A stretch of 11,222 nt of DNA. Source: Candidatus Diapherotrites archaeon CG10_big_fil_rev_8_21_14_0_10_31_34. Its GTDB lineage: Archaea; Iainarchaeota; Iainarchaeia; Iainarchaeales; 1-14-0-10-31-34. The position numbers were made by a program, and so were the translations under genes. Location of the stretch: the NCBI GenBank assembly GCA_002763225.1, contig PFAI01000058.1:1-11222 (forward strand), written 5' to 3'. Each line of letters starts with the position of its first letter. Within the stretch, counting starts at the first letter, position 1. The notes beneath the pieces are model-generated. The model ran no database searches and was not told where the DNA came from. It saw nothing but the letters and a program-made list of their open reading frames with translations. Positions 2,344 through 11,222 of the stretch are shown here, piece after piece.

Positions 2344-2916
2344 ATGGAATACATTATAATTGACATTGAAACCTGCCCGATAGAATTAGAAGGCTATTTA
2401 GAGTTAAGCGAAACAGACAAAAAAAAATTATTAAATCCAATTGACTCAAGAACTGTAGCAATAGGGTTAAGGCATGGCTCAAAAAACATTGTAATTCAGG
2501 ATGAAAACGAGAAACTAATGCTAGAAGAATTCTGGAAAGAAATCAAAAACTTTATTGGAAAAGACTTAAAGAAAAAAATTGTTGGATTTAATTTAAAGGA
2601 ATTTGATTTGCCTTTTTTAGTGACAAGAAGTTTTATCAATAACGTAAAAATTTTTCCTTTCAAAATAAAAGAAATAATTGACTTAAGGGAAAAAGTTTCT
2701 GCTTTTAGGTATGGTTTTACAAGAGGAAAACTAAAAGAATTCGGCGAAGCATTAGACATTGAACTGCATGAAATGGATGGTTCAATGGTGGCAGAAGAAT
2801 GCATTAAAGGCAACATGGAAAAAATCAAAGAATACTTAAACAAGGATTTAGAAATAACAGATAAAATGCTGAAAAGAATAATTGAAACAAACATAATTGA
2901 AATAGAACGATGGTAG
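2344..2916 (+). CDS. DEDDy 3'-5' exonuclease / RNase H-like protein (PolB-exonuclease-like, stand-alone)
   Basis: ExoI IIIDIET, ExoII VGFNLKEFDLPFL, ExoIII YLNKDL. ATG 2344 is preferred over the track's TTG at 2224 because ExoI normally lies at the N-terminus. Confidence 0.85.
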   Translation: MEYIIIDIETCPIELEGYLELSETDKKKLLNPIDSRTVAIGLRHGSKNIVIQDENEKLMLEEFWKEIKNFIGKDLKKKIVGFNLKEFDLPFLVTRSFINNVKIFPFKIKEIIDLREKVSAFRYGFTRGKLKEFGEALDIELHEMDGSMVAEECIKGNMEKIKEYLNKDLEITDKMLKRIIETNIIEIERW

Positions 2917-3630: not shown

Positions 3631-3986
3631 TTTTTGTTCAACCTTTTTTTGAAAAAGGTTGTGGAAGTTTTTTTCTTTTGGCAAAGAAGGTCTTTTTTTG
3701 TTGAACCTTTTTTGAAAGGTTGTGTTTTTGATACAACTTTTTTCTTTTTTGTTGAACCTTTTTTAAAAAGGTTCTGGTATTGAAAGTAAGGAATTATTTT
3801 TTGGTATTGTGTTAAGGAAGTTAAGCATCCTTTTGGCAACCTGCCTTTTGGAAAAGGCGGGTAAAAAGGTTTGTGCCAAGCCATTAAAATAAAACTGGGG
3901 GGTCTTATTAGTAATTTTACGGCTTGGCACAAGCGTGGGAGTAAAGTAAAACTTTTCTTTTGATAAAACTTTTTCTAAAAGTTTTG
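3631..3986 (+). repeat. Cluster of AT-rich REP-like palindromes (TTTTG-N3-AAC/AAA-CTTTT-loop-AAAAG-GTT/TTT)
   Basis: Units at 3631-3661, 3696-3722, 3747-3774, 3958-3986, a GC-richer variant at 3831-3862 and a partial at 3726-3744. The unit at 3631-3661 nearly matches the reverse complement of 8188-8218. Confidence 0.8.
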
Positions 3987-4448
3987 TTTGATGAAATACA
4001 AAACTTTTTTTCCTGACTGAGCTTTTTTCAGATAGCCTTCCTTAAATAATTTATTCAGTCTCTGAGAGGCAGCATTAACTCCTTTATAATTCAATTCAGT
4101 TTGAATCTCTGAAGCTGTAACTGCATTTTTTTTAGTGACTAAATCCATTATTTTTTTGTCTTGTTCGGCCAGTAAAATAAAAGAATTTTCTTCTTTTACT
4201 TCAGGAACTTTACCTGTTTTAAGCTCTAACATTATGTTATCATATTTGTCATTAATGTCAGATAAAATTTTGTTTGTTGCTTCCCTTTCCTGAGCCAACT
4301 TAAATAACAGCATTGCAACGAAAAATGGATCCTTGCTTTGCTGGAATAAATCCTGAATGTCCATTGTGAGTTCATCAAATTTAGGAGACAGTTTTTTTAC
4401 TGCTTCCCTGGATTTGAGTAACTCCTTGAACATATCATGATTATTCAT
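3975..4448 (-). CDS. Transcriptional regulator with N-terminal helical/coiled-coil region and C-terminal winged HTH
   Basis: C-terminal LAEQDKKIMDLV...VTASEIQTELNYKGVNAASQRLNKLFKEGYLKK...KKVLYF is a typical wHTH pattern. The N-terminal half is heptad-like. Confidence 0.8.
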   Translation of the reverse strand: MNNHDMFKELLKSREAVKKLSPKFDELTMDIQDLFQQSKDPFFVAMLLFKLAQEREATNKILSDINDKYDNIMLELKTGKVPEVKEENSFILLAEQDKKIMDLVTKKNAVTASEIQTELNYKGVNAASQRLNKLFKEGYLKKAQSGKKVLYFIKQNF

Positions 4449-4488: not shown

Positions 4489-4544
4489 TTTTTGGATTTT
4501 AGATTAGAAGCCAATTATATAAATTTATATAATTTAAAAATTTG

Positions 4545-4587
4545 AAAAAAAAGAAATTGTTTGATTTGACAAAAGCAAATCAAACAA
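4545..4587 (-). terminator. Hairpin plus U-tract downstream of the acidic-peptide ORF
   Basis: Perfect 12-bp stem TTGTTTGATTTG (4557-4568) / CAAATCAAACAA (4576-4587) with a 7-nt loop, followed on the minus strand by TTTCTTTTTTTT (4556-4545). Confidence 0.7.
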
Positions 4588-4612
4588 GTTAAAACAGTTT
4601 TTCTGAGTTTAC

Positions 4613-4663
4613 TTAGTCGTCGTCTTCTGTTTCTTCTATGTCGTCAAAGTCTTCGTCGCCCAT
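4613..4663 (-). CDS. Putative 16-aa acidic micropeptide MGDEDFDDIEETEDDD
   Basis: ATG at 4663, TAA at 4615-4613, AAGGAGG at 4678-4672 with an 8-nt spacer (alba and the 282-aa gene have 9 and 7 nt after GGAGG). 11 of 16 residues are D/E. An in-frame ATG at 4696 without an SD would give 27 aa. Confidence 0.6.
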   Translation of the reverse strand: MGDEDFDDIEETEDDD

Positions 4664-4848
4664 AAAAAATTCCTCCTTATTTAAAGTAATAAGCATAAAA
4701 TCAATTGCATTAAAAATAGCTTTAGCTGGAATAAAACTCAAAGAAACAGTTTTTGTTTTTTCAGCTTAATGCTTTTTTAAAAAACCACTGCACACCAAAA
4801 TTCTAAAAATTTTGTCTCCACAGCGTAACTATTATACCTCTATCAAAG

Positions 4849-4864
4849 TATTTAAATGTTTCTA
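4849..4864 (-). promoter_or_regulatory. Putative BRE/TATA promoter for the micropeptide transcript
   Basis: Minus strand TAGAAACA TTTAAATA; implies a transcription start near 4825-4830. Confidence 0.5.
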
Positions 4865-4877
4865 AAAAAGAAAAAAA

Positions 4878-5153
4878 CAATGCTATCACGATTCCACTCG
4901 CGAGTAACAGTGCGAAACATAAAGTTGCGCCAGCCCCATGCAAAGCACGGTGCATCGTGTTTAACCGGCGAAACGGTTATCGTGCTCAAACGACGAAACA
5001 GCAGGACCGAAGGTCGTGCATTTTGCTTAAACTTTTCTTAAAAGTTTATTGCAGTGCTATCGAAGATAGCACGCGTTACTCACGTTTTAAAGCAGTGCTA
5101 CTGAAAGTAGCACGCTCTCTTCCGAGGAGCAGCTCGGAGCGGACGCAACCGGC
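4878..5153 (+). repeat. GC-rich mosaic hairpin repeat element, copy A (REP/BIME-like)
   Basis: Shares blocks with 7035-7150: 4980-4999 vs 7066-7085 (19/20), 5044-5081 vs 7086-7123 (37/38), 5139-5151 vs 7124-7136 (13/13), and ACAGCAGGAC...GTCGTGC. Contains internally duplicated hairpin modules and is much richer in CpG than its flanks. Confidence 0.85.
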
Positions 5154-5426
5154 TTATTTCTTCATTAGAATTTCTATTGAAGAAACTTTTAATGGCCCGC
5201 CTTCATCTGTTGCTATTTCTTCTGTTGAAGTTGAAATGCTAGTAATTTTTAAGTCTTTCATAAACTTGTTTCTGACTATTTCAGATACATCAACTGCCCT
5301 GGAAATTGCTTTTCCTCTTGCTTTAATTGCTATTTCAGTTGCTCCTGAATTAACTTGTGTTACAACAGCCAAAACATATGCCATTGTGCCTTTCTTTCCA
5401 ATAAAAATAGTATTTTCTTCTGCCAT
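5154..5426 (-). CDS. albA: DNA/RNA-binding chromatin protein Alba
   Basis: 90 aa with [31 protein letters not shown] and VSSIEI motifs; SD GGAGGTG at 5440-5434. Confidence 0.96.
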
Positions 5427-9020: not shown

Positions 9021-11222
9021 ATGACTGAATTTTATTCATTAAAAATCGATGAAGTATTTAAAGAACTAAATAGTTCACAGGATGGATTGACTGACAAAGA
9101 AGCATTTGAAAAAAAAGAAAAGTTTGGTTTAAACAAATTAAAAGAAGGAAAAAAAACAACTAAACTGGAAATTCTTGCAAGCCAGTTTAAGAGCCTGATT
9201 ATCTGGATTTTGATTGCAGCAACAATAATTTCTTTTTTTATCGGAGAAACAGTTGACGCAATAGTAATACTGATTTTAGTTTTAGTTAATGCAGTAATTG
9301 GTTTTGTTCAAGAGTATAATGCAGACAAATCAATTGATGCACTAAAAAAATTAATGAATTTAAAAGCAGTAATAAAAAGAAACGGCAAAACAATTGAAAT
9401 TAATTCAGAACAACTGGTGCCGGGAGACTTAATTTTGCTTGAAGAAGGAATGAAGGTTCCGGCAGACATCAGGTTAATTGAAGCAATTTCTTTAGAAACA
9501 CAAGAAGCTTCTTTGACAGGAGAAAGTTTGCCAGTGCAAAAAAAAACAATTGAATTAGTTAAAGGAACTCCTTTAGCTGAAAGAACTAACATGGTTTTTT
9601 CCGGAACTGTAATCTCTAAAGGAAAAGGAAAAGGCATTGTTGTCTCAACTGGAATGCAGACAGAAATAGGAAAAATTGCAGGAATGCTGCAGGAACAAAA
9701 AGAACCTCAAACTTTACTGCAGACAAAACTGGCTTTTATGAGCAAATGGATTGCAGTAGCAACAATAATTATTTGTGTAATAGTTTTTTTAAGCCAGGTT
9801 TTACTGCATTTAACTTCAATGACTCCGGAAAAAACTTCTGATGCATTTATGCTTGCAGTAAGTCTGGCTGTAGCAGCAATTCCTGAAGGACTTCCGGCAA
9901 TAGTAACTATTTCTCTTGCATTAGGAATTCAGAGAATGGTGAAAAAAAAGTCTTTAATCAGAAGGCTTCCTGCAGTTGAAACACTTGGGTCAGTTGACGT
10001 AATTTGTACAGACAAAACAGGAACATTAACTAAAAATGAAATGACTGTAAGAGAAATATATTTTTCATCACAAAAAATAGAGGTAACAGGAGAAGGGTAC
10101 AATACTAAAGGAAAGTTTTTGTCAGGAAAAGAGCCAGTGGATTTAAGCATGATTTTAAATGCAGGGGTTTTATGTAATAATTCAATTTTAGAAGAAAAAG
10201 AAATGATTGGAGACCCGACAGAATTGAGTTTGCTTGTAGCTGGCGAAAAAGCAGGAATAAAAAAAGAAAAACTGGAATTAATTTATCCAAGAACTGGAGA
10301 AATTCCTTTTAGCTCTGAAAGAAAACTAATGACTACAATTCATTTACATAAAAATCAAAAAATTTCTTTTTCAAAAGGAGCGCCAGATGTAATACTGGAT
10401 TTATGCACTAAAATTTTTGAGAAAGGAGAAATAAGACAGATTACTTTTGGAGACAAAGAAAAAATTAAAGAAATGAACGAAGAAATGGCTGAAAAATCCA
10501 TGCGGGTTTTAGGTTTTGCATTTAAAGAGGAAAACGTTGAAAAAGAAGAACAAATGATTTTTTTGGGTTTACAGGCAATGAATGACCCTCCAAGAAAAGA
10601 AGTAAAATATTCTTTAGAGTTATGCAGGCAGGCAGGAATAAAAGTAATAATGATTACAGGAGATTATCTTGGAACAGCAAAAGCTATTGCAAAAGAATTA
10701 GGTTTGGGAACAAATTCTTTGAGCGGAAAAGAATTAGAAGAAATCTCTGAAAAAGAATTAGAAGAAAGAATTGAAAACATAGATATTTTTGCCAGAGTTA
10801 ATCCTGCCCATAAAATGAAAATAATTAAAGCACTTCAGGCAAAAAACCATGTTGTTGCAATGACCGGAGACGGAGTAAACGATGCTCCTGCACTGAAAAA
10901 AGCTGACATGGGAATTTCAATGGGAATAAAAGGAACTGATATAGCAAAAGAATCAAGTGAAATGATTTTAATGGACGACAATTTTGCTTCAATAGTTGAT
11001 GCAATACAAGAAGGAAGAGGAATCTATGATAACATAACAAAGTTTGTGAATTATTTACTGTCATGCAATTTAGGAGAGGTATTACTGATTTTTTTTGCTA
11101 TTATTATTTGGTGGGATAAACCTGAAGTAATTATTCCTTTGATTCCAATTCAATTGCTTTGGCTGAATATTGTAACTGATGGTTTACCAGCTCTTGCGCT
11201 TGGATTAGATCCAGCAGAAAAA
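9021..11222 (+). CDS. P-type cation-transporting ATPase, P2A (SERCA/PMR1-like Ca2+ ATPase); 3' end lies beyond the window edge
   Basis: From ATG 9021: LVPGD, VPAD, LTGES (TGES at 9516), VAAIPEGLP, phosphorylation motif DKTGT at 10011, [30 protein letters not shown]5 [10 protein letters not shown]6 [10 protein letters not shown]. Confidence 0.96.

Follow-up and report, generated by a model that had tools for sequence, protein, structure and literature searches.

De novo or 'proto' genes form when new sequence falls under the control of a promoter or leader that was already present. In bacteria, the attenuation leader peptides hisL and pheL comprise about 16 codons, are dominated by one or two amino acids and are followed by a hairpin and a U-tract, while MgtL serves as a Mg2+-sensing leader. 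To our knowledge, leader-peptide attenuation has no archaeal example, and we know of nothing described for archaeal ribosomes that corresponds to destabilisation by Asp/Glu (D/E)-rich chains. Acidic DNA mimics (Ocr, ArdA and the anti-CRISPR mimics) and the disordered acidic DSS1/Sem1 are folded or far longer than 16 residues, and their partners have been shown.

N-terminal D/E-rich chains abort translation in bacteria and eukaryotes, an effect that Mg2+ counteracts (PMC9718836). Translated archaeal small open reading frames (ORFs) of 70 amino acids (aa) or less have been documented by ribosome profiling, in Haloferax volcanii and in Methanosarcina mazei (PMC10117724, PMC11456600). No comparable archaeal acidic micro-peptide is described in the titles and abstracts that our literature search covered.

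The window analysed here, a stretch of 11,222 nucleotides (nt), is contig C55 of a 1.04-Mb, 31% GC, 81%-complete assembly from a groundwater archaeon (genome G000). On its minus strand, an earlier note had described a complete micro-gene for a hyperacidic peptide, and its account of the ORF matched exactly. The micro-ORF consists of 16 codons and a TAA stop (4613–4663; ATG at 4663, TAA at 4615–4613), follows the Shine-Dalgarno (SD) sequence AAGGAGG (4672–4678) located 8 nt 5′ of the ATG, and encodes the peptide MGDEDFDDIEETEDDD, in which 11 of the 16 residues are acidic (seven Asp and four Glu) and none is Lys, Arg or His. Acidic residues occupy seven of the ten positions following Met, a D/E-rich run at the very N-terminus of the kind treated in PMC9718836, and the C-terminus reads DDD. 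A perfect 12-bp hairpin with a 7-nt loop (4557–4587) lies 25 nt past the stop codon and is directly followed by the T-tract TTTCTTTTTTTT (4545–4556), so that the hairpin and U-tract that had been claimed were found in that order on the minus strand (4587–4557 and 4556–4545); the T-tract is the likely transcript end, where it would act as part of a terminator. We propose, with a probability of roughly 40%, that this locus is a young, species-specific and expression-competent micro-gene that originated from a copied promoter and leader of the uS15 gene.

We aligned the start region to every crude gene start of the genome. The region upstream of the uS15 gene (C46:11041–11496, whose product matches Pfam Ribosomal_S13_N and Ribosomal_S15) reached a local score of 64 compared to a mean of 19.7 and a standard deviation of 3.6 for the null of 987 starts, the next-best scores being 41 (P1 leader) and 37. 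The homologous block (4660–4724, minus strand) comprises promoter, leader and start: from 4724 to 4660 it spans AAAGC-TATTTTTA and the leader with its SD, closing with the start codon, the ATG of the micro-ORF aligning opposite the TTG of uS15, and the GGAGG of the micro-ORF leader opposite GGAGT in the uS15 leader (AGGAGT at the homologous position). The BLAST core of this homology covers 38 nt with 89% identity (E 6e-7). In a global comparison from −64 to +5, the copied leader shares 79% identity with the genome's own uS15 leader and 60–71% with its counterparts in five sister species, to which the uS15 leader of G000 itself is 69–83% identical. As the copy is nearest to the uS15 leader of its own genome, the homology fits a duplication inside the G000 lineage, and since the spacer between uS15 and the gene before it, in which the uS15 leader lies, measures about 100 nt, the block contains the only plausible uS15 promoter. 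The body of the micro-ORF was also considered as a relative of the uS15 coding sequence and shows no relation to it (score 24, rank 91 of 1,005 genes). The start signals are typical of the organism, with GGAGG 8 nt before the ATG and a uS15-homologous leader, and the anatomy of a complete micro-gene is strengthened by a copied leader that aligns at a real ribosomal-protein start. The 3′ end of the 16S rRNA, sought for its anti-SD, was not found in the assembly.

The same block changes the probable point of transcription initiation. The earlier note had proposed a BRE/TATA element at 4864–4849 and a leader of about 165 nt. The sequence of this distal candidate is present (4848–4863, minus strand), but it is not distinctive, as its 5.3 bits equal the median of the per-gene best matches on a position weight matrix that was learned from 458 upstream regions of the genome and whose diffuse positions have little power to discriminate between candidates. 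The proximal candidate AAAGC-TATTTTTA (4711–4723, minus strand; 7.2 bits on the same matrix) lies inside the uS15-homologous block. Because this nearer candidate (4723–4711) is homologous to a real uS15 promoter, it is the likely promoter, the leader probably measures about 25 nt rather than 165 nt, and the long leader has become doubtful.

The block also bears on a reading raised beforehand, namely that the micro-ORF is the decayed C-terminus of a longer gene entering from upstream. The reading frame does stay open upstream as far as 4765, but this open stretch spans only 50 codons and crosses the copied uS15 promoter and leader, and it thus represents regulatory DNA. The sole other in-frame ATG (4694–4696, minus strand), which would give a 27-aa form and has no SD, is changed to ATT in a strain variant (ATG at 4696–4694, change at 4694) that keeps the 16-aa ORF intact, so the 27-aa form is not maintained within the species. 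A tblastx comparison of 4500–4900 with 24 related loci returned only the conserved palindrome upstream of the neighbouring wHTH gene and chance matches, with nothing in the micro-ORF frame. We consider descent from a longer gene barely credible.

In base composition and codon usage, the micro-ORF differs from its surroundings and from the genome. Its GC content is 45% (56% at third codon positions) compared to 20–29% in the flanks, and all seven Asp codons are GAC, which bears out the earlier description of a GAC-rich ORF within AT-rich DNA. Genome-wide, GAC accounts for 34% of the Asp codons; native runs of seven successive Asp codons are all-GAC in 23 of 7,903 cases, and among genes with at least seven Asp codons the GAC share nowhere exceeds 87.5%. 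A GAC preference was looked for in the ribosomal-protein genes of G000 and none was found, so that high expression does not explain the exclusive use of GAC in the micro-ORF. The ORF body may have come from elsewhere, have arisen very recently or be under constraint as a nucleotide sequence.

Hyperacidic ORFs are rare in this genome. With a cut-off of at least 12 aa, a D+E fraction of at least 0.42 and a K+R fraction of at most 0.12, only three ATG ORFs were found in all six frames, and all three have GGAGG upstream, compared to a background of 87 of 13,523 ATG ORFs of 12–199 aa (intergenic: 22 of 1,343). AGGAGG by itself is weak evidence: the genome contains 350 copies, 305 of them inside a crude coding mask, and the 45 intergenic copies are found before ORFs of at least 60 aa (16 copies), of 30–59 aa (three) or of shorter length (seven), or have no start codon (19). 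Perfect hairpins of at least 11 bp number 53 in the genome and eight in a shuffled genome; about 15 reach 12 bp, the hairpin of the micro-ORF among them. The rarity of hyperacidic ORFs, the GGAGG background and the excess of hairpins together place the combination of ORF, SD and terminator beyond chance; jointly, the three are non-random.

Promoter candidates and terminator bound a unit of 145–280 nt, which, together with a long imperfect hairpin across 4701–4791, would also suit a non-coding small RNA in which the ORF is incidental. The 12-bp hairpin is present in both predicted folds, and the SD is predicted to pair weakly with the 3′ U-tract. The folds of the 291-nt and 148-nt forms, however, are no more stable than those of shuffled sequences (z −1.03 and −1.76), Rfam returned no family at gathering score (at E ≤ 10, only two chance-level matches, a plant microRNA with E 0.34 and a mammalian lncRNA family with E 4.1), and there is no conservation that could show covariation, which makes a small RNA highly improbable. 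A search for tRNA and tmRNA found none.

The micro-ORF might instead be a regulatory leader, the translation of whose Asp/Glu-rich start would set passage past the hairpin toward the wHTH gene, either through Mg2+-dependent destabilisation of the ribosome or through attenuation. The acidic start, the seven Asp codons among 16, the terminator-like hairpin shortly after the stop codon and the Mg2+-opposed abortion of translation by such N-termini (PMC9718836) agree with this idea, as do inverted repeats that connect the leader segment 4734–4763 to 4591–4610 and 4543–4562. Yet this segment would be untranscribed if the proximal promoter is used, no alternative pairing to the 5′ arm of the hairpin was seen, and the folds do not exceed shuffles in stability. 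The sole cation pump in the window, a P-type ATPase, is encoded on the opposite strand, its gene starting at 9021, 4.4 kb away. Above all, the downstream wHTH gene has its own promoter, which is conserved across genera whatever fills the space in front of it; the regulatory reading fails for this reason, and we regard it as very unlikely.

The earlier note had named, as grounds for refutation, a failure of close relatives to keep the SD and the frame, and this is the outcome obtained. A degenerate back-translation of the peptide, with three mismatches allowed, retrieved one of 196 genomes of the order, G000 itself, and none of the 195 others, and an SD-led acidic ORF is found neither within 1.5 kb of alba in 19 related genomes nor in five slots between alba and the wHTH gene that were covered in full. 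The exact degenerate core matched no species-representative genome contig and no viral contig; in metagenomes, it matched only two contigs, both from the same species (100% and 99.5% identity). The 99.5% variant, which is also present in DNA run X5, has about 10 differences in 1,849 nt, three of them in the leader (4802, 4694 and an extra T near 4697–4701) and none in the 51-nt ORF. Contigs of four DNA runs likewise show strain variants only outside the ORF, with depth spikes on repeats; among 24 public runs, no RNA run was found. The strain differences are too few for a selection signal either way. The cassette is thus species-specific among the genomes and collections searched, and as no related genome has it, it has the appearance of a newborn gene whose use is unproven.

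The DNA that received the cassette is itself variable. Upstream lies alba (5154–5426, minus strand), as the earlier note had it (Pfam Alba, E 1.8e-18); downstream lies a probable wHTH gene (3975–4448, minus strand), for which the earlier identification was upheld in part, the gene with its own conserved promoter being present and its assignment coming from a Pfam match below threshold (Penicillinase_R, 21.7 bits; cut-off 22.6 bits). In five genomes of other genera, the conserved blocks of alba and of the wHTH gene are about 50–140 nt apart. Within the genus, the contents of this slot differ from species to species. Comparing the gaps of four sister species (G002, G003, G004 and G005; loci L029–L032) by eye, we found what we take to be a 106-aa hydrophobic or small membrane protein in G005, presumably rubrerythrin-like and desulfoferrodoxin-like ORFs in G003, and apparent toxin-antitoxin-like pairs in G002 and G004. 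Different cargo in each species marks the gap as an insertion hotspot. The promoter of the wHTH gene and an upstream palindrome (4513–4534) are retained in all slots compared. A functional tie of the peptide to Alba or the wHTH protein, which had been suggested from adjacency, is not supported: the arrangement is not conserved, the slot holds unrelated genes in sister species, and adjacency is incidental to where the insertion landed and carries no weight in a functional argument.

Several further features of this neighbourhood were recorded. The promoter and start region of the wHTH gene contains three ATCATGAT palindromes, and its segment 4435–4496 is 80–93% identical across many genera of the order; the palindrome at 4513–4534 reads TTATATAAATTTATATAA and is kept within the genus. 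Both palindromes are candidate operator sites. Directly after alba, between it and the cassette, an array of GC-rich hairpin repeats, several with TTCG loops, extends over 288 nt (4866–5153); it has 35 further BLAST matches in G000, and contig depth spikes to 8–9-fold over it. The micro-ORF was considered as a copy of this repeat and dismissed, as BLAST matched it to no repeat copy. Two exact matches of 20 nt link 4582–4607, around the near edge of the terminator hairpin, to the antisense strand of unrelated long genes (C22:12931–12967 and C15:1876–1895); they may hint at a patchwork origin of this DNA or be coincidental in AT-rich sequence. A long ORF on the minus strand (2–2212) runs out of the window and contains an intein (Intein_splicing, E 1.4e-27; LAGLIDADG_3, E 1.3e-17).

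Such a neighbourhood raises the question whether the cassette is a non-functional by-product of recombination, filler put together from hairpin repeats, other scraps and a copy of the uS15 leader, with an ORF that is accidental whether or not it is transcribed. Its confinement to one species, the hypervariable slot, the adjoining mobile hairpin repeats, the two 20-nt antisense matches, the non-native codon usage and the lack of detectable selection on the ORF all speak in favour of this. An accident, however, would have had to yield one of the genome's only three hyperacidic ORFs, with its first codon precisely on the copied start, an SD better than the original, an ATG and, past its end, a perfect hairpin and T-tract of a rare kind; and a GC content of 45% would be surprising in old neutral DNA of a genome with 31% GC. 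Weighing both sides, we judge an accidental origin somewhat unlikely.

Unlike the micro-ORF, the remaining two hyperacidic ORFs of G000 have conserved counterparts in sister species. The first (G000:C11:1012–1149, minus strand; locus L037) lies between the genes for the ribosomal stalk proteins P0 and P1 (Pfam). In G001–G004 (L075–L078), it is intact, SD-led, 66–72 aa long and rich in D, E, S and T, and ends with EEN; G005 lacks it, and none was seen in four loci of other genera inspected among 19 loci fetched. In G000, the ORF is interrupted by an in-frame TAA at codon 15; the corresponding codon of G001 is GAG. The second (34 aa; G000:C14:7655–7759, minus strand; locus L038) lies between the primase genes PriL and PriS (Pfam) and has syntenic counterparts of 35–43 aa in G002, G003 and G005 (L041, L045 and L046), whereas synteny differs in G001 and the contig is cut in G004. 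The proteins of this family (34–43 aa) share the start M..D..KFQEE and end with [DE]S[FY] or DEV. Outside the genus, no such ORF turned up ahead of PriS in 24 loci, and a profile of the four PriL-PriS sequences matched only those four among the 196 genomes of the order. The genus thus does possess SD-led hyperacidic small genes, but the 16-aa ORF does not belong to the conserved ones: at the level of genus synteny, the P0-P1 and PriL-PriS genes are found in four to five of six genomes and the 16-aa ORF in one. All three are SD-led, have a D/E-rich N-terminus and sit in spacers beside genes of nucleic-acid machinery, but the 16-aa ORF shares no clear sequence with the other two past the leader and SD features. 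G000 also contains a second complete-looking micro-gene of a different kind (C65, around 2458–2517, plus strand; L039), in which a TTTAAATA box and AGGAGG 8 nt before the ATG precede a 19-aa hyper-basic ORF, MAKKKTVKKKKTVKKKKKR, followed by a T-tract.

Given these families, the micro-ORF could be a relic, either a fragment of the P0-P1 acidic gene or the remainder of a gene that lost its middle and so joined its start to an acidic tail and terminator. The best match of the micro-ORF region within its own genome is indeed the 5′ end of the P0-P1 ORF (C11:1086–1163; 72% over 83 nt, E 0.09–0.17), and in G002 the 5′ end of the same gene again comes first (69% over 93 nt, E 0.0012); the local score of 45 against both the C11 and the G002 ORF exceeds the maximum of 27 among 53 SD-led starts in 101-nt windows. 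With 145-nt windows, however, it barely exceeds the null, which reaches 41, so that much of the score is due to shared leader and SD features; the other orthologues score only 21–35, and both sequences are low in complexity and purine-rich. The micro-ORF also has none of the family's hallmarks, lying beside alba, measuring 16 instead of 66–72 aa and ending with DDD instead of EEN. No full-length progenitor was found in the genomes of the order or in species-representative contigs, and tblastx against the slots of relatives was negative. Truncation of a larger gene is, in our assessment, distinctly unlikely.

A broader interpretation is that this genus of the Iainarchaeota repeatedly evolves SD-led hyperacidic micro-proteins beside basic nucleic-acid machinery (P0/P1, PriL/PriS and alba). 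Their polyanionic tails would chaperone the neighbouring proteins or compete with nucleic acid on them, or, as an alternative mode of action, the ORFs would be Mg2+-sensitive and destabilise ribosomes; the 16-residue gene would be the newest member, just born from a copied ribosomal-protein promoter and leader. We think this generalisation unlikely.

Under the preferred reading of a young micro-gene with a copied uS15 leader, a copy of about 65 nt comprising promoter, leader, SD and start of the genome's uS15 gene would have landed in the gap, prone to recombination, that separates alba from the wHTH gene, where the block came to head a 16-codon hyperacidic ORF that closes at a hairpin and T-tract. 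Transcription from the proximal promoter would give an RNA of about 145 nt, ribosomes would initiate at 4663, and the product would be a free 16-residue polyanion. By analogy with the two conserved hyperacidic small proteins of the genus, its activity, if any, would most likely consist in electrostatic binding to basic nucleic-acid-binding or ribosomal proteins; a polyanion role for the peptide is something we only infer. The earlier suggestion of a polyanionic mimic or chaperone, or of a cation-binding peptide, gains no more than indirect plausibility from the two conserved genes beside P0/P1 and PriL/PriS. Arguing for the micro-gene are the homology to the uS15 leader, an SD and start codon stronger than those of uS15, the rarity of such ORFs, the hairpin and the maintenance of the 16-aa start; arguing against it are the lack of conservation and of a selection signal, the atypical GAC usage, the weak promoter matrix and the possible masking of the SD. 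In addition, since D/E-rich N-termini abort translation in bacteria and eukaryotes (PMC9718836), the micro-ORF is expected to be translated poorly.

If expressed, the locus would be a clean natural case of micro-gene birth, brought about when a recombination hotspot received a copy of a ribosomal-protein promoter and leader, and few gene products proposed for archaea would be as short or as acidic. Alongside the two conserved acidic genes of the genus, it would then suggest that very small DPANN genomes encode a class of polyanionic peptides to which standard annotation is blind. If not expressed, it serves as a warning that full textbook signals can arise by duplication; such signals, without conservation or expression data, do not show function.

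Compared with the described systems, the peptide resembles Ocr, ArdA, the anti-CRISPR mimics and DSS1/Sem1 in its polyanionic composition and could, by analogy, bind basic DNA-binding surfaces, but a 16-mer is too small to copy a DNA surface of the size that the acidic DNA mimics do, and binding is putative. With hisL and pheL, it shares the length of about 16 codons, an abundance of codons for one or two amino acids, as an attenuator that senses them would have (seven Asp and four Glu of 16), and the hairpin and U-tract. In contrast to these leaders, no antiterminator was found, 25 nt separate the stop codon from the hairpin, and the downstream wHTH gene has its own promoter and stands outside the Asp/Glu pathway. 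Unlike MgtL-like acidic sensor ORFs, the micro-ORF is followed by a probable terminator and has no cation-transport gene downstream on the same mRNA. As with the small ORFs of Haloferax and Methanosarcina, it is a short intergenic ORF with its own start signals that gene callers miss; those ORFs come with translation data, whereas the micro-ORF is predicted from sequence and is extreme in being only 16 aa long, 69% D/E and confined to a single species. Finally, whereas its GC-rich codons are unlike what local AT-rich DNA would be expected to yield as a proto-gene, the locus resembles proto-genes in combining a copied expression module, here that of uS15, with an ORF without homologues, in a variable slot and in one lineage.
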